This document shows, piece after piece, positions 48 to 11,349 of a stretch of DNA of 12,499 bases. Position numbers and translations under genes: made by a program. The DNA is from Nitrospirota bacterium (lineage in GTDB: Bacteria; Nitrospirota; UBA9217). The notes under the pieces are model-generated. The model had not been told where the DNA came from and searched no databases. It saw only the letters and a program-made list of their open reading frames with translations. The first letter of the stretch is position 1; every line of letters begins with the position of its first letter. The stretch spans positions 1 to 12,499 of the forward strand of contig JAOUEV010000082.1 in the NCBI GenBank assembly GCA_029858565.1. Direction: 5' to 3'.

Positions 48-1313
48 ATGAAGAACGAACTGAACATCAAGTGCATCTTGAGCAAGGATGCGCTGCCTGC
101 GGGCAGTGCTGAACAGGCGGTCTACGCGCTCGTGAACATCAAGCCGGCAGGAGAGGCATGCCTCACTTCGATGCCCGCGAATTTCGGACTGGTGCTCGAC
201 CGGAGCGGGTCCATGGACGGGGAAAAGATGGACCACCTGAAAGAAGCCGTGGGCTACGTAATGGACCACTTGAACGATGACGACCTTGTCTCGATCACGA
301 TTTTCGACGACCAGGTGGAAACGCTCATTCCCAGCCAGGCCGCCAGGAACCGCGAAGAGATCAAGTCAAAACTCGGGACGATCATTGCGCGCGGCGGAAC
401 CCAGATCTCCGACGGCCTCAAGGCCGGACTGGAAGAGGTGAAAAAAGGCCTTTCCAAGGAGCGCGTCAACCGCATCCTGCTGCTCACCGACGGCCAAACC
501 TGGGATGACGAACCCGCCTGCACAGAGCTCGCTGACCAGGCCGGCAGCCAGGGCATCGCGATCACGAGCATCGGCATCGGCCAGGACTGGAACGAGAAGC
601 TCCTGCTAGAGCTTTCCGACCGGTCCCGCGGCAACTCGCACTGGATAGAGAACCCCCTGGCGATCCTCGATGCCTTCCAACAGGAGGTCCGGAGCATGCA
701 GTCGGTTGCTGCCACGAACCTGCGGGTAACCGCACGGATGGGCCAGGGCGTCAAGGCGGTCAAGGTATACTCGACCGTCCCGATGATCTGCGACCGGACC
801 ATCGCGGCAGTGAACAGCGGCAATATCGTCGCGAACCTGGGCGCACTGGACGGCATAAAGGGCCAGTCGCTGCTGATCGAAGCCCGGGTACAGCCCGCTC
901 AGACCGGCACCTTCCGGCTCGGCCAGGTGGAGGTCACCTATGATGTTCCTTCAAAAGCCATTAAAGGGCAGAGCATCAAGACCGATCTCTCCGTGACCTT
1001 CACTGACGACGCGGCTGCCGCTGCAAAGGTGAACGCCGAGGTGATGAACCTTGTTGAAAAAGTGAGCGCGTTCAAGCTCCAGACCCGGGCGCTTACCGAG
1101 GTCATGACCGGCAACATCGACGGGGCCACGAAAAAACTCCAGTCAGCGGCCACGGTGCTCCTGGACCTGGGCGAGGACGAACTGGCCGCAGCAGCGGAAA
1201 CGGAGATCCGGTCGCTCAAAAAGACCGGTGCCCTCACGACCGCGGGCGCCAAGAAGCTGGAATACGGCACGAGAAAGCTGACGCAGCAAATGACAAAAGC
1301 CATGGTCAAATAG
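48..1313 (+). CDS. von Willebrand factor type A (vWA) domain protein, YfbK/Ca-activated chloride channel homolog-like
   Basis: 421-aa ORF with AAGGAGG RBS upstream. Complete MIDAS motif: LVLDRSGSM (DxSxS), GGT, LLTDG. Helical C-terminal region. Confidence 0.92.
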   Translation: MKNELNIKCILSKDALPAGSAEQAVYALVNIKPAGEACLTSMPANFGLVLDRSGSMDGEKMDHLKEAVGYVMDHLNDDDLVSITIFDDQVETLIPSQAARNREEIKSKLGTIIARGGTQISDGLKAGLEEVKKGLSKERVNRILLLTDGQTWDDEPACTELADQAGSQGIAITSIGIGQDWNEKLLLELSDRSRGNSHWIENPLAILDAFQQEVRSMQSVAATNLRVTARMGQGVKAVKVYSTVPMICDRTIAAVNSGNIVANLGALDGIKGQSLLIEARVQPAQTGTFRLGQVEVTYDVPSKAIKGQSIKTDLSVTFTDDAAAAAKVNAEVMNLVEKVSAFKLQTRALTEVMTGNIDGATKKLQSAATVLLDLGEDELAAAAETEIRSLKKTGALTTAGAKKLEYGTRKLTQQMTKAMVK

Positions 1314-1350
1314 AAATTATCCGTGAAGCGCGCGATATCCGGAGATTTTC

Positions 1351-1382
1351 ATTCCGCACTCCGCATTCCGCACTTCGCACTT
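1351..1382 (+). repeat. Heptamer short tandem repeat, A(T/C)T(C/T)CGC x4.5
   Basis: ATTCCGC ACTCCGC ATTCCGC ACTTCGC ACTT in the spacer between the vWA and FHA genes. Confidence 0.85.
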
Positions 1383-1401
1383 GAAAAGGGAGGGTATCGC
1401 C

Positions 1402-1845
1402 ATGAAATGCAAAGAATGTGAGATGGAGAACATCGAAGGAGCGCTCTTTTGCGAGGAGTGCGGATCAAAGCTTGAGGCCGCGAGCGACATGAAGGACAGG
1501 GCAGTGGAATCGTCGGGCAGCGGACCGGCGCTGGTGTTCACCTCCGCTGACGGCGAAACGCTCGAGATCCCGGCCAAGGACGAGGTGGTCATCGGCAGGG
1601 AGGATCCCATCAGCGAGGTCTTCCCGGACATCGACCTGACCGGGCTCGGCGGAATGGAAAAAGGCGTATCGCGCACCCACGCGGTGATCCACCGCTCCGG
1701 CGGGGACTGCACGGTCGAGGACATGGGCTCCACCAACGGCACCTATGTCAACAAGAAGCGCGTCCAGCCCCATGTGCCGCAGGCGATAAAACCGGGCGAC
1801 GAAGTGCGCTTCGGCAAGCTGGCGCTGGCGCTGAAAGCAGCATGA
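1402..1845 (+). CDS. Zinc-ribbon + FHA domain protein (147 aa)
   Basis: ATG at 1402 after GGGAGG RBS. N-terminal CKEC...FCEECG Zn ribbon. Canonical FHA motifs IGR, VSRTHA, DMGSTNGTYVN. Confidence 0.92.
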   Translation: MKCKECEMENIEGALFCEECGSKLEAASDMKDRAVESSGSGPALVFTSADGETLEIPAKDEVVIGREDPISEVFPDIDLTGLGGMEKGVSRTHAVIHRSGGDCTVEDMGSTNGTYVNKKRVQPHVPQAIKPGDEVRFGKLALALKAA

Positions 1846-1852
1846 TGAAACG

Positions 1853-1953
1853 GACACGGCGACACGGTGACACGGAGACGCGGAGAAAAGGCTTAAATAC
1901 AATCAAAACCCTTGCTCCATCCCCGCGTCCCCCCTTCCCCGCGTCTCCGCGTC
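1853..1953. repeat. Inverted pair of octamer tandem arrays, (GACRCGGN)x4 ... (YCCGCGTC-like)x4
   Basis: GACACGGC GACACGGT GACACGGA GACGCGGA at 1853-1884. Complementary units CCCGCGTC CCCCCTTC CCCGCGTC TCCGCGTC at 1922-1953, ending at the next RBS. Confidence 0.8.
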
Positions 1954-1965
1954 AAGGAGGAATTC

Positions 1966-4215
1966 ATGGACCGTCTCACTTATAAGACCCTTCTCTACGG
2001 CGCAGCAGGCGGCCTTGGCGGTATTGCCGCCTGGGCGCCGGTCCTGGCCCTGTCCCAGGGCATGCGTACGGGACTCCTGACCGAGATCAGCCTCGGAGCC
2101 CTGACCGGCATGTTCATCGGCGGATTCATCTGGAGCCACGAGGCGGTCATGTCCAGGCAATTCCTGACTGCGCTCAAGCGGGCGGCCTTCGGCGCCCTTG
2201 CCGGAATCGTTGGCGGAGCGCTCGGCGCAGGCATGGGGACAACGGCATTCTCCGCGCTCGGACGCTATGTGGCGGACCTCAGCGGTTTCCGCGCTTCCCT
2301 GGGCATTGCCCTGTCCGTGGCCCTGGGCTGGGCGGTCCTCGGAGCAGCCATCGGCATGAGCGGCGGGGTAATGATCCGGTCCCGCGAGCGCGCAGGCTAC
2401 GGCCTTGCCGGCGGTCTTGTCGGCGGATTCTTCGGCGGCATCCTGTTCAACAGTCTTTCGGCGACCAATGTCTGGTCGGCCCTGGCCGGACTTTCGCTTC
2501 TGGGTCTTGCGATCGGCGCATTCATCAGCCTTGTGGAAGAGGCTTTTGTGTCGGCAAAGCTGAAAGTGATCAAAGGCCGGCACCTGAACAGGGAATTCCC
2601 GCTTCTGAAGGAAATGAACGTGGTGGGCCGCGACGACCGGGCTGATGTGTGCTTGTCCGGCGCCGAAGGCGTGCTGCTTGAGCATGCGTCCATTCTGCGC
2701 GACAACGGGCGTTTCACGATCGAGACCAATGAAACAGGCAAGCCTGTGTATGTGAATGAAGCCATGACCACAAAGAAACGTCTTGATGACGGCGATGTGA
2801 TCCGCGTGGGAAGCATCCTGCTGCTGTTCACCGCGATCAGGAAGACCGCGGCGCTCGCGGCGATACTTATGCTCGTCGGCTTGTCCCTGGCGTTGCCGGG
2901 GACCGTTCTTTCCGCCGACCCTGCTTCGCTCCAGATCACCCAGTTCGATCTGAGCGGCTTTCCGGTGGTGAAGGCCTATGTATCGGCGCTTGACAAGGAA
3001 GGAAAACCGGTGCACGGCCTGACCAGGGAGAGCATGACGCTCAAGGAGAACGGCAAGACCGTTGTGATCGACTTGCTGCAAATGAACGGGACCAACGGTG
3101 AAGCCGAACCCCTGAGCCTCGGCATTGTTGTCGACCAAAGCGAATCCATGACCGGCGACAAGCTTTTGCATGCCAAGGAAGCGGTCATTCGTTTCCTTGG
3201 GCTCATGGAAAAGGATGACAAGGCATCGCTCGTCCTGTTCAGCGACAAGGTGACGACCCTCTCCGGCCTGAGCAATGATCAGGAAGCGCTTGTAAAGAAC
3301 GTGCAGGCCATCGAAGCACAGGGCCACACCGCGCTCTACGACGCGGTCGCCGCGGGCGTTGCCTCGGTCCGGGGCACGACAGGCAGACGCGCTGTGATCG
3401 TGCTGACCGACGGCATTGCCAACCGCGGAGCGCTTGATATCGACCAGGCGATCGAAGCGGCTGTCGCGGAATACGTCTCGGTCTACGTGATCGGCCTGGG
3501 CAATGATGTGCGCACGGCGCGGCTGGAACGGATCGCGTCGGAGACCGGCGGTTCCTATTTCTTCACGCCGTCGTCTGAAGGCCTTTCCGCGATCTACGAG
3601 ACCATCAGCAAAAGGATCCACAACGAATATACGGCGACCTTCACCGCGGAAAAGCGCGGCGATTATCTCCGGAAGATCTCGCTGAGCCTCGCAGCCGGGC
3701 TGTCGGCTGAGCGCGCCTATTTCCAGCCTGAATCCTCGCTCTTCGGCGCCGGCGGCATGGCGCCGTCCCGGGCTTTCGCAGCGACCCTCGCGGCGCTCGT
3801 CTGCCTCCTTGCCCTCTCCCTGCGCAGGATCGAGCAACAGTACAAGACCGCCCATCTGACGCTGGTACGCGGAGCGGGAACGAAAACGAACATCCCTGTC
3901 GGAGCAACAGCGTCCATCGGCAGAGACGGACGCAGCACCCTCGGGCTGAAAGACAGCGGCATCGACCAGCAGCATGCCCGGGTCAAGAAAAGCGCCACGG
4001 GCTACGTCATCGAGGACAAGGGCTCGGCACAGGGAACCTATGTGAACAAGACCCGCGTCCTGGGAACAAAGACGCTCAAGGACGGCGATGTCATCACCAT
4101 GGGCAACGCCACCATCGTATTCAACGAAGGAACCACGAAGATCTGCGCGGAATGCGGAGAACCGGTTCGTATGGCCGCCAAGTTCTGCGCAAAGTGCGGA
4201 GCGAAAGCTGCGTAA
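1966..4215 (+). CDS. Multi-pass membrane protein: TM bundle - FHA - TM - vWA - TM - FHA - Zn ribbon (749 aa)
   Basis: ATG at 1966 after AAGGAGG. Gly/Ala-rich hydrophobic N-terminal helices, FHA-like VVGR...H...VYVN, hydrophobic helix, vWA MIDAS (DQSESM, GHT, VLTDG), second hydrophobic helix, FHA-like IGR...QHA...GTYVN, terminal CAECG...FCAKCG. Confidence 0.9.
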   Translation: MDRLTYKTLLYGAAGGLGGIAAWAPVLALSQGMRTGLLTEISLGALTGMFIGGFIWSHEAVMSRQFLTALKRAAFGALAGIVGGALGAGMGTTAFSALGRYVADLSGFRASLGIALSVALGWAVLGAAIGMSGGVMIRSRERAGYGLAGGLVGGFFGGILFNSLSATNVWSALAGLSLLGLAIGAFISLVEEAFVSAKLKVIKGRHLNREFPLLKEMNVVGRDDRADVCLSGAEGVLLEHASILRDNGRFTIETNETGKPVYVNEAMTTKKRLDDGDVIRVGSILLLFTAIRKTAALAAILMLVGLSLALPGTVLSADPASLQITQFDLSGFPVVKAYVSALDKEGKPVHGLTRESMTLKENGKTVVIDLLQMNGTNGEAEPLSLGIVVDQSESMTGDKLLHAKEAVIRFLGLMEKDDKASLVLFSDKVTTLSGLSNDQEALVKNVQAIEAQGHTALYDAVAAGVASVRGTTGRRAVIVLTDGIANRGALDIDQAIEAAVAEYVSVYVIGLGNDVRTARLERIASETGGSYFFTPSSEGLSAIYETISKRIHNEYTATFTAEKRGDYLRKISLSLAAGLSAERAYFQPESSLFGAGGMAPSRAFAATLAALVCLLALSLRRIEQQYKTAHLTLVRGAGTKTNIPVGATASIGRDGRSTLGLKDSGIDQQHARVKKSATGYVIEDKGSAQGTYVNKTRVLGTKTLKDGDVITMGNATIVFNEGTTKICAECGEPVRMAAKFCAKCGAKAA

Positions 4216-4223
4216 CTACAACC

Positions 4224-5408
4224 ATGACAAAACTTCTCAATAATAGATATGAAATACGCGGCATCCTCGGAAGGGGCGGCATGGGATGCGTGTACAAGGT
4301 CGCTGACCGAAAAGCGAAGGGCCGCATCCTTGCCGCAAAGGAACTGCGGTCCGACGGTCTGTCCCCGGCCAAGGCCCAGGAAGCCCTTGCCCAGTTCAGG
4401 ACCGAGGCGCGAATCCTGACCAGGCTCGACCACCCGAATCTGCCGAAGGTGCATGATTATTTCAGTGCGAACAACAGGCACTACATCATCATGGACCAGG
4501 TGAAGGGCGCGACCCTGGCATCGATCCTCAGCCGACGCCCCGGTCAGCCGGTGGACGAGCAGATTGCCCTGTCCTGGGCGCTCCAGATCTGCCGAGCCAT
4601 GCAGTTCCTGGCTGTGCAGAAGCCGCCGGTGGTGTTCCGGGATCTCAAACCCGGCAATATCATGATAGACAAGAACAACAAGGTAAAGCTCATCGACTTC
4701 GGCATCGCCCGGTTCTTCAAGGACGAAAAGGAAGGCGACACCTATGTGTACGGCACACCGGGATATGCCGCGCCCGAACAGTACGGCACGGGCCAGACAG
4801 ATATTCGCTCCGACATCTTCTCCCTCGGCGCAACGCTCCACCACTGCCTGACCTGCAGGGACCCGTCCCTCCATCCCCTGGATTTTCCCGACCCGCGCAA
4901 ACTGAATCCCGCGCTGAACAAGGGAACAGCGAAGATCGTGATGAAGGCGCTGGAACAGGACATGCCGCGGCGCTACCAGACCGCGCTGGACATGAAGCAG
5001 GCTGTTCAGTCCGTGCTGATGAACATCGAATCCCTTCCCAAAGGCGTGAACAGCGTGATCCATGCCCAGGCCGGAAAACCCATCACCATCCCCTGGTGGA
5101 AAAGGACCAGCTGGGTGCGCGTGCCCGTTGTGGCGCTCGGGTGCAACGGCACCACAGGAACGCTGTCATCGAGCGACCGCTGGCTCCATCCCAAACCCGG
5201 GGCCTTCAACCCCGGTGCGTCGCAGCTCCTGTTCCGCGTCGACGGCTCGAAGCTCAGGATGGGCAGGGAATACCGTCCGCGCATCACCGTGCACACCGAC
5301 GCGGGCATTCTCCGGCCGCAGCTCCTGATCAAACGGCCCTGGCCGTGGATGTTGATCGATGCGGGATTGATTGCGGCGGCTGTTGCGGGGATATTGATGA
5401 TGAGGTAA
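4224..5408 (+). CDS. Hanks-type Ser/Thr protein kinase with C-terminal membrane anchor (394 aa)
   Basis: Motifs LGRGGMG, AAKE, FRDLKPGN, LIDFG, GTPGYAAPE, SDIFSLG. Hydrophobic C-terminus. ATG at 4224 lies 8 nt after the preceding stop, which fits better than the ORF-track start at 4152. Confidence 0.95.
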   Translation: MTKLLNNRYEIRGILGRGGMGCVYKVADRKAKGRILAAKELRSDGLSPAKAQEALAQFRTEARILTRLDHPNLPKVHDYFSANNRHYIIMDQVKGATLASILSRRPGQPVDEQIALSWALQICRAMQFLAVQKPPVVFRDLKPGNIMIDKNNKVKLIDFGIARFFKDEKEGDTYVYGTPGYAAPEQYGTGQTDIRSDIFSLGATLHHCLTCRDPSLHPLDFPDPRKLNPALNKGTAKIVMKALEQDMPRRYQTALDMKQAVQSVLMNIESLPKGVNSVIHAQAGKPITIPWWKRTSWVRVPVVALGCNGTTGTLSSSDRWLHPKPGAFNPGASQLLFRVDGSKLRMGREYRPRITVHTDAGILRPQLLIKRPWPWMLIDAGLIAAAVAGILMMR

Positions 5409-5499: not shown

Positions 5500-5558
5500 C
5501 ATGAACGCGCCGCTGACTCGCCGCTTTTGGCGAATCGATGTCGAGCGGCTGGTTGGTC
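5500..5558 (-). mobile_element. Integron attC site (59-base element), essentially intact
   Basis: Minus strand: GACCAAC(R'')-CAGCC-GCTCGAC(L'')-ATCGATTCGCCAAAAGCGGCGA-GTCAGC(L')-GGCGC-GTTCATG(R'). AAC/GTT triplets, 5-nt spacers, one extra C in L'' (extrahelical G on the bottom strand), terminal stem-loop, 2 nt after a stop codon. Confidence 0.9.
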
Positions 5559-5560
5559 TA

Positions 5561-7402
5561 TCATGAAGCGATTGATTTCAATTGCGTGTCAATAGAAGAT
5601 ATGAATTCTTCAAGTGATTTCAGAAGAACTTCAATTTCTGCCAATCTGAGAACGTGAAATTTGCCAGACTTTGTCCGGCCGTTTCGATGAACAAGGTCAT
5701 GTCGAATAGCAATGCCACGATGTATAAGCTCTATATCTTCTGGAAATTTAATTTGGAGCACATTGTCGTATAGATTCTCAACACGAGCTAAATTATGCCA
5801 AACAAGATCGAGAAGATACTCGCTTACTTTCTTGTTGATTTGGTTTTTCCAATCGAGGATGTCGGTGATGGCATACTTCCGTTCTTTAAATTCCGGGACA
5901 GTCTTCAATAGCCGTTCTATGAGTGCATCGCTGTTAGTTACTTTGTGGAAGAAAGCATCACATAAGTAAGTTTCCATAGCCGTTATTGCGGCCGCATATA
6001 TCATTCTGAGTAGAGGCTGCCTAAGCTGAGCACGGCTCGGTAATTTCTGTGATAGTAGACCGCGGATAATCGATACCTCTTTTGTAAAAGTCTTTAAGAA
6101 ATCAGAGTTAGCCTGAGCTGATTCATACAAAGCTTCGTACAATCGTCTTAGTCGATTTTCACTTTCGCATAATGGACAGCCAGATTGAAGAATTGTTCGA
6201 TTCTTTACTTGTGCGAGCCATTCATGCTCGGGATTAAAACTGCATCGCCACCAGATTTTTCGACCACTTGCACGAGTTACCTCATTCGGCGTCAGTGAAG
6301 CGTTCTTTGTCGGATGCCATTCTTTGGCAATTAAAGGATAGTGGAGAGCAAGGCTATTCTTTTCTGTTGCGGCACGTCCCGAACAATGAGGGCATGCCTT
6401 CATTTCGCCTCTGCTGTGCGTTCTTTGAGTTATCGTTGATTGCCACTCATAACTTGGGTCTTTTGAACAACGCCACCATACTCGTTTCGAGCTACCCGAT
6501 GTGAAGTCGGAAGGTTTAAGTTCGCCGTTCTTTGTCGGATGCCACTCTTTAGCAAGCTCAGGGAATTTATCGGCAAAACTAGGGCTTTTGCTACAGATTG
6601 GGCAGCCTCTCCCTTTTTTCCTGGTTCGCGGTGTTGCCGCCCATATATGGGATTTATTTTGAGGGCAAATCCACCAAACCTTACGAGAAGATCCGCCGGT
6701 AAGTTGTTCAGGCAGTAATGGAAAGTTCTTTGTTGTATGCCATTGAACAGCTATGTCGGGCATGGAAATTGGTAATGGCTTCTTATCTCGTGTAAGGCAC
6801 TTTGGACATCCGGATAAATCTTTTGCCCGTGTTACAATACGTGCTTGCCAACTGTGGCCTTCTTTGCATTGCCACCAAACTGCCTTGTTCATTCCACGTG
6901 AAACATCCGTTACTAAAAGAGGCAAATTCTTTTTAGGGTGCCACTCTGCTGCAAGTTCAGGATTGGTATATTTTAGTGAACTTTCGTTAAGACGGCATTT
7001 CGGACAAATAGAGGTATCTCTGGTTCGATGGGCAATAAGGGTGTTCCATTCATGTCCCGAACTGCATTTCCACCAAGCTCTCTTATTGCTAAACGGACCT
7101 ACCGCCTCTGGTCGCAGTGCACCGTTCTTTGTTGGATGCCATTCTGCCGCCACGCTAGGATACAACGTTGCCAACGAGCGTTCAGGCGAAATAAATCGAC
7201 CTGAGCAATAAGGACAGCCGCTCTTATTTATGGATCGATTTCTTATGCGTCCTTTCCATTTGTGGTTAGGATTATTTTTGCACTGCCACCAAACACGTCG
7301 ATTCGAATTGGCTAAAGCGTCTTCAAACCGGAAAACTCCATTTTCGGTTGAACACCATTCTTCTTTTAGTTCTGGATTCGTTACACTGAGAAGTATCTTC
7401 AT
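5561..7402 (-). CDS. Six tandem DUF4379-like zinc-ribbon repeats fused to a C-terminal HEPN domain (putative RNase)
   Basis: Six repeats of P-x-(L/I/V)-x2-(E/Q)W..KN..S..VWW.C...H.W......R.....CP.C. Helical C-terminus with AITAMETYL and RHDLVH (Rx4H HEPN motif, 5687-5704). Start is ATG 7402 or TTG 7420. Confidence 0.85.
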   Translation of the reverse strand: MKILLSVTNPELKEEWCSTENGVFRFEDALANSNRRVWWQCKNNPNHKWKGRIRNRSINKSGCPYCSGRFISPERSLATLYPSVAAEWHPTKNGALRPEAVGPFSNKRAWWKCSSGHEWNTLIAHRTRDTSICPKCRLNESSLKYTNPELAAEWHPKKNLPLLVTDVSRGMNKAVWWQCKEGHSWQARIVTRAKDLSGCPKCLTRDKKPLPISMPDIAVQWHTTKNFPLLPEQLTGGSSRKVWWICPQNKSHIWAATPRTRKKGRGCPICSKSPSFADKFPELAKEWHPTKNGELKPSDFTSGSSKRVWWRCSKDPSYEWQSTITQRTHSRGEMKACPHCSGRAATEKNSLALHYPLIAKEWHPTKNASLTPNEVTRASGRKIWWRCSFNPEHEWLAQVKNRTILQSGCPLCESENRLRRLYEALYESAQANSDFLKTFTKEVSIIRGLLSQKLPSRAQLRQPLLRMIYAAAITAMETYLCDAFFHKVTNSDALIERLLKTVPEFKERKYAITDILDWKNQINKKVSEYLLDLVWHNLARVENLYDNVLQIKFPEDIELIHRGIAIRHDLVHRNGRTKSGKFHVLRLAEIEVLLKSLEEFISSIDTQLKSIAS

Positions 7403-7420
7403 CTTATTACTCGCGCTCAA

Positions 7421-7639
7421 TTAGACTTTGTCAGTTTTACGAACGCCGCAAATAACGCACGTACCGACGCCACGAGAAAAATTGCCGTGTTCACCTTCAC
7501 AGAAACCGCGATGGCATTTATAGCAATAACGCGCCGTTTCCCGTCGTCGGCGAAAAACCTCAGTGCATATCCAGCAATCAGCCCATTTCCCAGCCTCTAT
7601 AAGTTCCTTAGCGCTTTTTATCGCCACCTTTTTTGCCAT
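7421..7639 (-). CDS. Small Cys-rich putative double zinc-finger protein (72 aa)
   Basis: ATG at 7639 with GGAGG RBS just after an attC remnant. Pattern CxxC-x13-CxxC-x4-CxxxH-x9-CxxC. Confidence 0.75.
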   Translation of the reverse strand: MAKKVAIKSAKELIEAGKWADCWICTEVFRRRRETARYCYKCHRGFCEGEHGNFSRGVGTCVICGVRKTDKV

Positions 7640-7697: not shown

Positions 7698-8900
7698 TCA
7701 CATATCATTAAGTTCGCATGACTCAGAAATTTCAGCGAGATATTCCGGCTTGACATATTTGATGATGGTCTTAATCTTTGGCAATTCTTCTTTGATTTTT
7801 GAAAAAGATATGAAGCGGCACATTTCAGATAGGGGCGGGCTCATTTTAGAAAACGTGGGGCGGTTAATTTCCGCCACCACTTTATCTCTGCGAGAGTCGG
7901 GCGCGACCAGATAGAGAGGGATATTAATATTCGGCTGCATTGCGATCAGGTCGGACATTCGCAATAAACCGGAATATATTGATGTCGTGCTTTCGATCTC
8001 GAAGGCCGCCATAATGGAATTTCCTCTGAGCCAAAGAACATCAATGTGTTCGATGGTCTTATTCGTCTGGCTGTCGAACTGGAGGGGAAGCTCCTGCTTT
8101 ATTCGAGGGATGTCAGAAAAAATCACACCGTCATGCTGTTTGTTTTTGTCGTTTCTTGCCGCCCAAATGTCAAAACCCATGTCCACACCGAGACGCAATA
8201 GGAGATATTGAATTTCAGTGTGTTCATTTGTTGAAATGACAGGTTCACGCGGCTCTTCTTTCTCGGTATAAACTTCTGCCTCAAGCATTTGTTCAGGCGT
8301 TGAAGGAATATCTTTCGAGTAGGTTTCCCACAATTTCCGAGCGTATGGTAAGAAGTCTCTGCCATCCCACTCAGACACGATTTTCTTCTGCATTGTGCTT
8401 ATTGGCGTTCCGGGGGCGGATTTCGAGGCAGCCTCAAGAACTCTTCGTCGAAAAATATTGATGCAGCTTGGTTTGTCGAGACTATTTTGATAATGGAACG
8501 CAATCTTCCACTTGTATGAATCGCCCAAGTCCACTTGATCAATGCGCTCAAGCTCATTCCTTTGAACGGCGTCAATCGTTTCTAGAATCTGAAGTTTGAC
8601 GTTTTCGAAAGCTTCTTTTTCGGACTCGCCATATTTGCGCATCCAACCGTAACTGTCAGAGTAAAACCGTCCACCGACATTTTCTCTTTCACCCTTATCA
8701 TCACGCGAATAGATGCCGAATTTGAAAGAAGACCCGCCCCAAATGGAGCCTAATTTTTCAAGTTTCGCCTCTATCCAGTAAGTGAACGTATCTTTCCTTC
8801 CACAATTTGTATATTCCGGAAGCGTCATTGATTTTATTTTATCGACAGGCCAAGCTCTTTTAAACTCCTGCCAGAGACCGTAATCATTGGTCATGCTCAT
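7698..8900 (-). CDS. Putative restriction-type nuclease: N-terminal domain like that of McrB-like AAA GTPases + C-terminal PD-(D/E)XK-like domain
   Basis: 400 aa with AAGGAG RBS. N-terminus WP..I..MTL.EYT....DTFTYWIE..LGSIWGGSSFKFGIY, acidic linker, then HTEIQYLL...IDVLW...AAFEIESTTSIYSGLLRMSDL. No Walker A motif. Confidence 0.7.
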   Translation of the reverse strand: MSMTNDYGLWQEFKRAWPVDKIKSMTLPEYTNCGRKDTFTYWIEAKLEKLGSIWGGSSFKFGIYSRDDKGERENVGGRFYSDSYGWMRKYGESEKEAFENVKLQILETIDAVQRNELERIDQVDLGDSYKWKIAFHYQNSLDKPSCINIFRRRVLEAASKSAPGTPISTMQKKIVSEWDGRDFLPYARKLWETYSKDIPSTPEQMLEAEVYTEKEEPREPVISTNEHTEIQYLLLRLGVDMGFDIWAARNDKNKQHDGVIFSDIPRIKQELPLQFDSQTNKTIEHIDVLWLRGNSIMAAFEIESTTSIYSGLLRMSDLIAMQPNINIPLYLVAPDSRRDKVVAEINRPTFSKMSPPLSEMCRFISFSKIKEELPKIKTIIKYVKPEYLAEISESCELNDM

Positions 8901-8946
8901 GGTACTTCTCCTTTATTTTGACGCTGATCTATGCCGCTTTTGTCCT

Positions 8947-9001
8947 GGACCACGCGCGCGTGAGGAACGCGATAGCGTTTCTCTCGAGGCGCAGGTTGGA
9001 T
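8947..9001 (-). mobile_element. attC site with damaged R' box (55 bp)
   Basis: Minus strand: ATCCAAC(perfect RYYYAAC)-CTGCG-CCTCGAG-AGAAACGCTATCGCGTTC-CTCACG-CGCGC-GTGGTCC. Extra C in L'' as in the intact site. R' reads GTG instead of GTT. Confidence 0.8.
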
Positions 9002-9138
9002 TCAGCATTTCGTGTTCGTTATATCTACCGGCAACTCTATTCCATAGAAATCCACTCTGAGTAAGACGACTCATCGGATCAAAGGCAATGTGACTCTTGG
9101 ATGTAGTATTTCATATCGATTGCGCATTATTGCTCTCA

Positions 9139-10077
9139 CTAAGAATGATCATTTATTATCAGGGGCTGGCCAAATAGATTTATGTAAAGTTGAATATTTA
9201 CTTCTGTAGACAGGCTTTTCATCTTGCTTAACAGGGAACGCTTTGTTTCTTTGGTTGTTGCGGTTGCATCAGGGATTACTCGGACTTGATCATAATTCGG
9301 CCCGATCAAATGCTCTCGTAAAGCAGGTTCGTCCCCTCCCAACGGAAATGTAACAAAAAAGGTGTTGATCGTGCTTTTCTTACGAAACGCTTCTACTTTC
9401 TTATCGGTGGGGTCAATTTCTTTGTTAAAGAAAAAATCCATATTATCATGATCTATATCCACATAGCCGCTATCATTAACACCTATAAAATATGATTGAT
9501 AGTCGCCCGGATTTCCGAAGTAATACTCTTCATGGTAATGAATGCGCCGGGCACCAAGATTCGCAGTTATATTTTCCGGGGTGTGCGGAAAATCGCCAAA
9601 GCGTGTCTTGCCAAGAATTATATTAAAGGCAAGTGGGACGGCTTTTTTAATATCTTCGGGAGCCGATTTATCACCAGTAAAAGCGTGTTCAAGGATTCTG
9701 AACGAAGGATTGAAATCTGCTTTGCGGGTAGTAACCCCATACGCAAGAACACGACCAGAGGTGTCAGCCAAAACTTGAAGATAAAAATACTGGTTTCCGA
9801 ATATATACTCTTTTATTTTTTTTGATTCGGCGACAGACGATGCGTTCTTGGCCAACGCTTTTCGTTCCTGCATTACCTGGGGATTTGTTTCTTTTGGGGC
9901 GTTCCACCCAAAATAATAAATCAAGTAGCCTGCAATCAAAGCTGCGATCACAGTCAAGACGACGTATCCGATAGGTTTCTCATGCCATCTGTTTTTAGCG
10001 GGATTCTGACTGACAGTGGAACCTTCTTTATCGGAAATAACGATTAATGTTCTTCTTGTTTTCTTTTTCTTCGGCAT
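9139..10077 (-). CDS. Membrane-anchored hypothetical protein, ETEC_3214-domain-like
   Basis: 312 aa with GGAG RBS. Basic N-terminus and one TM helix (YVVLTVIAALIAGYLIYYFGW). Motifs YLQV...AYGVTTR..FNP, LGKTRF and YHEEYYFGNPGDYQSY recalled from this family. Confidence 0.65.
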   Translation of the reverse strand: MPKKKKTRRTLIVISDKEGSTVSQNPAKNRWHEKPIGYVVLTVIAALIAGYLIYYFGWNAPKETNPQVMQERKALAKNASSVAESKKIKEYIFGNQYFYLQVLADTSGRVLAYGVTTRKADFNPSFRILEHAFTGDKSAPEDIKKAVPLAFNIILGKTRFGDFPHTPENITANLGARRIHYHEEYYFGNPGDYQSYFIGVNDSGYVDIDHDNMDFFFNKEIDPTDKKVEAFRKKSTINTFFVTFPLGGDEPALREHLIGPNYDQVRVIPDATATTKETKRSLLSKMKSLSTEVNIQLYINLFGQPLIINDHS

Positions 10078-10084
10078 TCTTTCT

Positions 10085-10164
10085 CCGTAATGTTGAGCCG
10101 TTTGACGCGCCGCTTTTGGCGCGTGCTGTCGCTTTGCCTCGCCAGAAGCCAGCTATCGTTACTT
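10085..10164 (-). mobile_element. Degenerate attC site
   Basis: Minus strand starts AAGTAAC, overlapping the stop codon. Contains hairpin ACGCGCC-AAAAGC-GGCGCGT with the same CGCCAAAAGCGGCG core as the intact attC. Ends CTCAAC-ATTAC, with ATT where GTT is expected. Confidence 0.6.
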
Positions 10165-11349
10165 TTTCGACATATTCTTCAGTATTTGGCTGACTATATT
10201 ATCTGGTAATGTTGGGCTCGAATCCCCTTTCAACAACCCTGTATCTGCACGACTAAATATCGACTGCAGAACGATATGTCTGTCAGCATCTGTAACACCT
10301 TTCTCATGCAGTAGAGATAGGTAAACGTGGGTCAGTTGGTGTCGTTCCTTAGCATCGCGCGAAAGATGAAACGCACTAGTCGAGAGCCTGGTAAACAGCC
10401 TAACAATGTACACGCCTATTGATGCGATCAGAGCCAACAAAATTGTCATCTTAAGGCTGTCTAAGCTTAAACCCTTGCTACCCATATATCCATTAGGAAG
10501 CTGGTATAGTATCGACATTAATAGCAGTATCAACAATCCAGCTCCAGTAATAGCCCAGGTTCTCCACATTTTTCCCTTGTCAAAGTACTCTTTCGCCATG
10601 TTACTCCAATATTGTGCCGGACCTTCCAACCGAAGCTTTTCGTGATAATTTCGTTCTAATTTGTCGAGGTTCTCCGACCTATCTTTAATTAATTTATCTA
10701 ATGCTTTCTGAGTTTCATTTTTCCAGTTAGTAAGATTCTCTTGAAATGATGCATAGGAGCCCCCGATGTCATCAGTGCGCTTGAGGTAGTCTGCGTGGAG
10801 AAGGTTTAATTCCTGTACGTAACGCGATCTAAGTTCTTCTAGCGCTTTATATTCATTTTTTTCGGCTGATACACCCGTAGATTTATCATCGCCCTTGTAA
10901 AGAAATGCCATCAAATATCCCTGAAACTTATTTTTATCTTGAATATTACCGATCCTATTCTCAAACAAGTATTCGCATGCAGCGTCTGCATGCTGTTGGC
11001 TTTTACCGTAAATCGTCTTTAGGAACTGTGCCGTTGGTGTTGCCGAGTAAACCGCAGGAAATGAGTTCTTTCGCGCATTATCTATTGCATGTTGAAGATC
11101 ATGCCGTGCCGATCCTGCATCACGATTCGGCTGCAGCGCCTGCGTTAGCTGGTTAACGATATTTTGAAAATGGTTTCGAATGCCGGCGATATTTCCACTA
11201 TTACAGGAACTCCAGAAGCTCAATTCATTTTTCATTACATCAATAAAATGCTCAAGGCTAACAAAATGCAGTTCTTCCTTGTCGGGGAAAATAGTGATTC
11301 TGACTTGTTGACTTTTAAAGTGCTCTTCGAGGTCCTTATCGATTTCCAT
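10159..11349 (-). CDS. DUF6161-like protein: helical/coiled-coil region, two TM helices, conserved C-terminal tail
   Basis: 396 aa with GAGGGGG RBS. LRLEGPAQYW, two hydrophobic helices, SAFHLSRDAKER...YLSLL...IVLQSIFSRADTGLLKGD, recalled as typical of DUF6161. Confidence 0.72.
   Translation of the reverse strand: MEIDKDLEEHFKSQQVRITIFPDKEELHFVSLEHFIDVMKNELSFWSSCNSGNIAGIRNHFQNIVNQLTQALQPNRDAGSARHDLQHAIDNARKNSFPAVYSATPTAQFLKTIYGKSQQHADAACEYLFENRIGNIQDKNKFQGYLMAFLYKGDDKSTGVSAEKNEYKALEELRSRYVQELNLLHADYLKRTDDIGGSYASFQENLTNWKNETQKALDKLIKDRSENLDKLERNYHEKLRLEGPAQYWSNMAKEYFDKGKMWRTWAITGAGLLILLLMSILYQLPNGYMGSKGLSLDSLKMTILLALIASIGVYIVRLFTRLSTSAFHLSRDAKERHQLTHVYLSLLHEKGVTDADRHIVLQSIFSRADTGLLKGDSSPTLPDNIVSQILKNMSKK

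Follow-up and report, generated by a model that had tools for sequence, protein, structure and literature searches.

A six-module DUF4379 array fused to a HEPN domain: a candidate one-gene defence protein on a low-GC island of a Nitrospirota bacterium

Contig JAOUEV010000082.1 (assembly GCA_029858565.1) is a 12,499-nucleotide stretch of DNA from a Nitrospirota bacterium of the UBA9217 lineage. Its minus strand carries a gene for a protein in which six tandem DUF4379 (PF14311) modules, predicted to bind zinc, are followed by a C-terminal HEPN domain. Here, we report a comparative analysis of this array-HEPN protein, its homologues and their genomic neighbourhoods, and make functional inferences from them; "the window" denotes the whole 12,499-nucleotide stretch. 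The gene and its domains are laid out below, with module coordinates taken from a genome search with DUF4379.

5561..7420, minus strand: whole open frame, 619 amino acids from the TTG at 7420
5561..7402, minus strand: coding sequence of 613 amino acids, stop codon included, from the ATG at 7402
7196..7363, minus strand: DUF4379 module 1, with predicted ligands C41, H47, C63 and C66
6992..7150, minus strand: DUF4379 module 2 (genome search, motif, ligand alignment)
6794..6955, minus strand: DUF4379 module 3 (genome search, motif, ligand alignment)
6587..6754, minus strand: DUF4379 module 4 (genome search, motif, ligand alignment)
6374..6556, minus strand: DUF4379 module 5, in which Tyr (codon 6449-6451) replaces the His ligand (genome search, motif)
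6161..6331, minus strand: DUF4379 module 6, the most highly conserved of the six (genome search, conservation profile)
5564..6148, minus strand: all-helical HEPN domain, residues 419-613, PF18735 RiboL-PSP-HEPN (Pfam, AlphaFold model)
5678..5704, minus strand: RHDLVHRNG, containing the Rx4H motif predicted to be catalytic, at the end of the third core helix (motif search, alignments, model)

The ATG at 7402, rather than the TTG at 7420, is the likely start of the gene, being the start both in the database gene call and in the alignment with 32 orthologues; all residue numbers given here refer to the resulting 613-amino acid form. The database representative, P0002, differs from the window protein at one residue (612/613 identical). 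The NCBIfam search found no family for the protein as a whole, and the names given to it differ: Pfam calls PF14311 a "probable treble clef zinc finger", whereas the NCBI protein name is "zinc-ribbon domain-containing".

The Pfam scan matches DUF4379 to six separate stretches of the protein (E 2.5e-107; 351.5 bits, cut-off 24.5), each with the pattern WWxC ... H-x-W ... CPxC, except that module 5 reads SYEW at the H-x-W part. On the basis of profile and ligand match, the modules are predicted to bind zinc: the metal ligands are C/H/C/C in five of them and C/Y/C/C in module 5, so that 23 of the 24 positions are intact in the window protein. Over the 33 orthologues, the 24 ligand positions are invariant except for the module 5 His, which is present in 29 and replaced by Tyr in four, namely the window protein and its three closest relatives. 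The array is strongly basic, with a net charge of +32 compared with +5 for the HEPN part. Of 198 modules, 193 have their closest match in the equivalently placed module of another species, and the order of the six modules is therefore old and fixed. The array is also as well conserved as the HEPN domain (mean conservation 0.58-0.70 for the modules, 0.60 for HEPN). What is conserved is a module scaffold, PEL..EWHP.KN, VWW.C, H.W, R and CP.C, while alternating positions of the beta-hairpin and positions in the helix that follows vary between modules and between species, which is an observation of variability and not of selection.

The full-length AlphaFold model, built on P0002, reaches a predicted local distance difference test score (pLDDT) of 85.8 and a predicted template modelling score (pTM) of 0.39, leaving the arrangement of the modules undefined. 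A Foldseek comparison of this model with the Protein Data Bank (PDB) gave significant matches to kinetoplastid mitoribosome DUF4379 proteins and assembly intermediates. Significance was confined to the repeat part, with the HEPN entry 1wwp at an E of only 0.19. By sequence and by fold, the array also matches mt-SAF33, a DUF4379 protein of solved structure.

The C-terminal domain is a HEPN domain by profile and by model, and is predicted to be catalytic. PF18735 scores 31.0 bits on residues 419-613 alone, above the cut-off of 28.4, and 27.8 bits, just below it, when the whole protein is scanned. The same family is matched in 52 of 62 aligned relatives and, at E<=1e-4, in 73 of 122 wider relatives. 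Seven residues (E477, H536, R567, H568, H572, R573 and G575) are invariant in all 33 orthologues, as are the corresponding columns in all 62 wider relatives. An AlphaFold model of the domain, made on the wider-relative alignment (pLDDT 95.5, pTM 0.90), places E477, within the sequence ETYL, in the long helix 40-71 of the domain, and RHDLVH at the end of helix 140-154, ahead of the loop to the last helix. It is at this helix end that the Rx4-6H motif of HEPN domains has been described, with a polar residue after the Arg and an acidic residue in helix 2 (PMC3710099). The domain thus combines a profile score above the gathering threshold, an Rx4H motif with the polar residue, the upstream acidic residue and a helical up-down bundle fold; we accept the HEPN assignment because profile, motif and motif position are consistent with one another and with the kinds of protein among the best fold matches.

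Among the fold matches are HepS (9oik, bound to a phage tail-tip protein according to its title) and Las1-type HEPN entries. The Foldseek search of the domain model against the PDB gave no match at E<=0.001; its top rows were nuclear-receptor ligand-binding domains, a likeness with a TM of about 0.16 that we treated as noise. A profile made from the HEPN alignment found nothing better among PDB sequences than coiled-coil designs at E 0.03, and a solved relative is therefore not detectable by sequence. A prediction of a HEPN homodimer scored 0.09 against a mark of 0.42, which weighs neither way. An earlier reading of this locus made without database searches (the sequence-only reading) had described six W/C/H-rich repeats of about 65 amino acids, the Tyr for His in repeat 5, the DUF4379 identity and a helical C-terminus with an Rx4H HEPN motif. 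The open reading frame, the Pfam scan and the motif coordinates bear out this description in every particular, the C-terminus being helical in two AlphaFold models.

Both halves of the protein are re-used elsewhere in other combinations. When the HEPN domain alone was searched exhaustively against 1.84 billion representatives, 1519 clusters were obtained at E<=1e-3 and 936 at 1e-10, and the pattern R-H-x3-H occurs near the C-terminus in 146 of 149 retrieved proteins (by regular expression, with position unaligned). Pfam domains were counted in 122 of the best 150 HEPN clusters, after the 27 shortest and P0042 had been left out. The N-terminal partners found were DUF4379 modules in 1, 2, 3 or 6 copies (14 proteins, some of the short ones possibly fragments), HEPN/RES-NTD1 (13), an HNH nuclease (12), an ABC/SMC-type ATPase (10), HEPN/Toprim-NTD1 (5), HARE-HTH (2), RNase_T (1) and the nucleoside phosphorylase PNP_UDP (1). 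The NTD1 fusions are those given for the MAE_18760 family, whose members have been likened to abortive-infection proteins (PMC3710099). Conversely, a six-module DUF4379 array about 40% identical to that of the window protein is found in proteins of about 1300 amino acids (L049 5570-9490; L050 505-4050; one of 1306 amino acids), where it is joined to a superfamily 2 helicase (ResIII/Helicase_C) and Methyltransf_8, so that arrays of this kind also come with an effector of quite another sort. Given the HEPN domain's many partners and the helicase-methyltransferase attached to the array, the two halves appear to be interchangeable parts, as is typical of conflict systems.

Viral genomes hold the HEPN domain apart from the array. 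The domain occurs in 7 of 50,697 phage records, and PHROG 29321 matches it at E 6.4e-25. With the patterns used, the viral collection yielded 10 loci and no full-length copy: nine contain the HEPN part only and one the array only. The temperate Pseudomonas phage LKA5 encodes a 280-amino acid hypothetical protein with the HEPN domain (L109 2195-3037; 33% identity, E 2e-22), flanked by genes for a C-5 cytosine methylase and a LexA-like protein, and this HEPN gene has the look of an accessory gene of defence type in a prophage. Further DUF4379-array genes are present in a related genome of the same family (G008; C1:708767-712664, C4:41027-42226 and C15:1386658-1388109), and one of them adjoins a protein with "homing endonuclease associated repeat" (HNH_repeat) modules (L019).

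The distribution of the full-length gene is patchy. Of 41 related genomes, two were found to carry it, one of them the window's own, and it was found in none of the three genomes of the same genus (86-97% complete). Full-length homologues with 38-84% identity lie on contigs titled Nitrospirota, Pelobacteraceae, Geotalea and Moraxellaceae, in a Verrucomicrobia record and on many metagenome contigs. In a word-based search, the array-HEPN family comprises 41 clusters at 90% identity, and is thus small but spread over several phyla. Across the 26 loci compared that carry a full-length copy (one of them a duplicate record), no family of neighbouring open reading frames is common to more than three, and no neighbour in the window recurs at the other homologous loci by tblastn; a conserved partner gene is absent.

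Neighbours of the homologous genes were scanned for known defence genes at 17 loci with usable flanks (103 open reading frames within 4.5 kb, PADLOC E<=1e-8). Matches were obtained at eight of these loci and none at nine. The matches comprise the methylase and nuclease genes of a type I restriction-modification system that flank one copy (L024 4839-11377), SIR2, DpdF, PDC-S02/YhcG, a PD-T4-6-type kinase, a Hachiman-like helicase and two weaker generic matches. Pfam adds, near other copies, a Ymh-HEPN and DUF2726 pair, IS91 transposases and a 937-amino acid TIR protein. On three related contigs (L029, L043 and L046), a homologous gene ends 53-73 nt upstream of the HEPN-array gene; its complete copy, at L043 3115-5928, encodes the 937-amino acid protein, with the TIR domain at the end. 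These defence-gene neighbourhoods are suggestive only.

In the window itself, the gene lies on an island of foreign composition. Between about 5500 and about 11500, the GC content falls from about 0.60 to about 0.44 (range 0.39-0.46), and all genes of this segment are on the minus strand; the island starts straight after the kinase gene of a conserved cluster on the other strand.

48-5408, plus strand: conserved cluster encoding a VWA protein, a 767-amino acid VWA/FHA protein ending in a zinc ribbon, and a Ser/Thr protein kinase
7424-7639, minus strand: 72-amino acid Cys/His-rich protein with CxxC...CxxC...CxxC, preceded by a GGAGG-type ribosome-binding site
7698-8900, minus strand: 400-amino acid protein, PD-T4-1-like over its first 150 residues (PADLOC E 1.3e-20) and type II restriction enzyme-like over residues 225-354 (5.2e-16)
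9139-10077, minus strand: ETEC_3214-domain protein with an N-terminal membrane helix (NCBIfam E 4.5e-32)
10159-11349, minus strand: AbiZ-like DUF6161 membrane protein (PADLOC E 6.2e-28; Pfam 3.1e-41)

The FHA/VWA and kinase genes are kept in five related genomes at 56-73% protein identity, and the first VWA gene in four of these five at about 70% identity. Four relatives that have the cluster show no island gene over the 1 to 11 kb examined downstream of it; this sequence extends for about 10-11 kb at three loci, and for about 1-1.4 kb at two others, which stop at contig ends (about 1 kb in L106). The window holds no tRNA, and the open reading frames scanned gave no integrase-like Pfam match. 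The array-HEPN gene is real and horizontally acquired.

The 400-amino acid protein, which has no Pfam, NCBIfam or PHROG match, is by its PADLOC similarities a candidate defence nuclease in its own right. The 72-amino acid protein, whose gene stops 18 nt ahead of the ATG at 7402, belongs to an unnamed, conserved family without a Pfam match (41 clusters, 54-88% identity, 64-97 amino acids). A 19-nt direct repeat with a short CGCC...GGCG hairpin occurs at 5514-5532 and 10103-10121, its two copies being 95% identical. One copy lies just past the stop codon of the HEPN gene and the other just past that of the AbiZ-like gene; the repeat might act as a common terminator or mark the end of a cassette. 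A search for RNA evidence listed no holder. Runs of two other studies contain short, near-identical contigs that span the junction between the HEPN gene and the 72-amino acid gene and that between the latter and the PD-T4-1-like gene; they may come from close kin of the same organism. The contigs of four sequencing runs leave 8897-11306 uncovered, from which no conclusion is drawn.

The reading that we favour, and that we rate at about an even chance, is that the gene stands alone, was acquired horizontally and belongs to the conflict genes of the abortive-infection or defence type, with the HEPN domain as effector and the array as binder of a trigger or substrate. HEPN RNases need a paired arrangement of their domains. 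In the mechanism that we propose, the HEPN domain would act as a metal-independent RNase, with catalysis by R567 and H572 of RHDLVH together with E477, and the strongly basic array of six position-specific zinc modules would find the trigger or substrate, most likely a nucleic acid. Engagement of this ligand would assemble HEPN domains into a composite, active site, and translation in the infected cell would then be stopped by RNA cleavage.

The sequence-only reading had proposed a sensor-effector protein and a candidate one-gene anti-phage system, in which HEPN is activated by the binding of the array to foreign nucleic acid. Its two domains stand, and four results fit a one-gene anti-phage candidate: the low-GC island with its AbiZ-like and PD-T4-1/restriction enzyme-like neighbours, the patchy distribution, the lack of a conserved partner and the defence-type neighbours at other loci. 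Its activation step is suggested by analogy with CapR, DUF723 and DUF4379 modules and with an rRNA-bound protein, as well as by the charge of the array. CapR binds a specific phage DNA site in electrophoretic mobility-shift assays, in which a four-cysteine mutant was assayed too (PMC8096241), and the literature groups CapR, DUF723 and DUF4379 together as kindred zinc modules with which homing endonucleases bind DNA (PMC10448857, PMC12350094). A marseillevirus protein joins four DUF4379 modules to a restriction nuclease domain (PMC5513546), and the DUF4379 protein mt-SAF33 binds helices h22/h23 of immature rRNA (PMC8784144). With DNA binding by CapR-class modules and rRNA binding by mt-SAF33, both DNA and RNA are therefore precedented ligands.

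A more specific version, which we consider quite unlikely, would make the protein a natural "zinc-finger RNase". Each of the six fixed modules would read a few nucleotides of a defined RNA or DNA sequence or structure, with the variable alternating positions of the beta-hairpin as reading residues, and two molecules side by side on the target would complete the HEPN active site. The target could be a phage transcript, a replication intermediate, or a site in tRNA or rRNA.

The sensing of a protein is a serious rival to that of a nucleic acid because of the precedent of RAZR, to our knowledge the only characterised zinc-finger-HEPN defence protein. In RAZR (PD-T7-4), a single protein, a zinc finger at the N-terminus is followed by a divergent HEPN domain (DUF4145) at the C-terminus. 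RAZR has no antitoxin and acts by abortive infection; its zinc-finger domain binds ring-forming phage proteins, assembles around them and sets the specificity (PMC13017515). By the same design, the array-HEPN protein would be a one-gene abortive-infection RNase whose array recognises a phage protein or assembly, the scaffold arranging HEPN into an active oligomer; HepS, a HEPN defence protein solved with a phage tail-tip protein, is a further example in its favour, and all the evidence from defence context applies to it equally. RAZR is the closest characterised system, but the parallel is one of design, not of sequence or membership: no PD-T7-4 model is among the PADLOC matches at E<=0.01, and Pfam reports no DUF4145. 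RAZR has one Cys4 zinc ribbon, whereas the window protein has six C-H-C-C DUF4379 modules of about 65 amino acids, and its HEPN domain is of the PF18735 RiboL-PSP type. The zinc finger of RAZR is reported to be its most variable region, in contrast to an array as conserved as the HEPN domain next to it. The ligands known for relatives of these modules are DNA and rRNA, and the array has a high positive charge. On this evidence we regard protein sensing as unlikely, if still the most probable of the rivals.

The three other rivals are less likely. The gene might be a selfish or addiction element, homing endonuclease-like or a toxin, whose array finds its own target and which persists by harming cells or genomes that lack it. 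Homing endonucleases of phages and giant viruses usually rely for targeting on arrays of DUF4379, CapR and DUF723, the repeats have matches in PHROG endonuclease families, plasmids commonly carry DUF4379 arrays (292 of 72,556 records), and one copy of the gene lies between IS91-type transposase genes. Homing endonucleases of this class indeed share with the window protein the N-terminal tandem modules of about 60 amino acids and a C-terminal nuclease-type domain, but theirs is a DNase of the GIY-YIG/T5orf172, HNH, Vsr/EDxHD or restriction fold, whereas HEPN, of an RNase type, is the only such domain that Pfam found here (PMC12350094, PMC10448857, PMC8096241, PMC5513546). They are described from phage and viral genomes, introns and inteins, with arrays shuffled in number; the array-HEPN copies were seen on bacterial contigs and chromosomal islands among varied neighbours, with positionally orthologous repeats, no full-length viral copy at the 10 loci mentioned above and insertion contexts that share no target gene. 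We judge such an element improbable. In favour of a toxin-antitoxin pair, in which the 72-amino acid Cys-rich protein would neutralise the HEPN protein, are the close spacing of the two genes on the same strand, the GGAGG-type ribosome-binding site of the small gene, the membership of the small protein in a real conserved family and the near-identical contigs that span the two-gene junction, although the runs concerned may simply contain close kin. The small protein was considered as a conserved partner and rejected, being present by tblastn at none of the 25 other full-length loci searched (one a duplicate); nor was it convincingly found in 200 genomes of the phylum, where the best foreign match has an E of 8.9e-5. 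Pfam found no nucleotidyltransferase among the window neighbours either, such as would accompany HEPN in a HEPN-MNT (type VII) pair, and the toxin-antitoxin reading is very unlikely. Least probable of all is a housekeeping role in which cellular rRNA or tRNA bound by the array is matured or degraded by the HEPN domain. In trypanosome mitochondria, one factor that assembles the ribosome and is bound to rRNA is a DUF4379 protein, Las1-type HEPN domains process rRNA according to titles among the fold matches, and the array is conserved position by position; against this, the full-length gene is rare among related genomes, missing from those of the same genus, and set in a foreign-composition island with neighbours that vary from locus to locus.

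Other HEPN families can also be compared with the window protein. The RiboL-PSP-HEPN, MAE_18760 and MAE_28990 families share with the window protein the Rx4H motif with a polar residue after the Arg and the conserved upstream acidic residue (PMC3710099). The likeness to the MAE_18760 type extends to the fusion of close relatives of the window HEPN domain with HEPN/RES-NTD1 and HEPN/Toprim-NTD1, whereas the fusion to an L-PSP endoRNase and the operon with ParB described for the RiboL-PSP family are both absent from the window gene. The parts of PMC3710099 consulted on these families do not mention a DUF4379-array fusion. Stand-alone abortive-infection proteins with HEPN domains (AbiD/AbiF, AbiJ, AbiU2 and AbiV) likewise consist of a single-gene effector with a variable N-terminus in defence or restriction-modification neighbourhoods (PMC3710099), and one array-HEPN homologue lies inside a type I restriction-modification locus. 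The Pfam and PADLOC models of these four groups do not match the window protein at the thresholds used, and a zinc-module array is not reported for them in the same parts of that source.

The family is not new to databases, because both domains are in Pfam and their fusion is visible in precomputed annotations, where it is called only "zinc-ribbon domain-containing protein". No system in PADLOC 2.0 covers the array-HEPN protein, and we found no published account of a fusion of a DUF4379 array with HEPN in the portions consulted of the literature on DUF4379, RiboL-PSP and one-gene HEPN or zinc-finger anti-phage proteins. We class the protein as a one-gene HEPN effector whose sensing or targeting part is a six-module zinc array not described before, and regard it as a good candidate for a one-gene defence system. 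The fusion is well founded, testable and, given RAZR, timely, yet it is also one more case of the well-known modularity of HEPN proteins.

One-gene HEPN defence proteins have been characterised one by one, and it is the sensing domain that determines what each of them detects. RAZR demonstrates that a single zinc finger can sense the ring geometry of a phage protein; the array-HEPN family combines a different HEPN family with a far larger array, of a class employed elsewhere for DNA binding by homing endonucleases and for rRNA binding during mitoribosome assembly. Were the array to read a protein, the RAZR principle would extend to a new scaffold. If it reads a nucleic acid, the family would provide a compact, modular and protein-only way of aiming an RNase, with a bearing both on how bacteria sense phages and on RNA-targeting tools.

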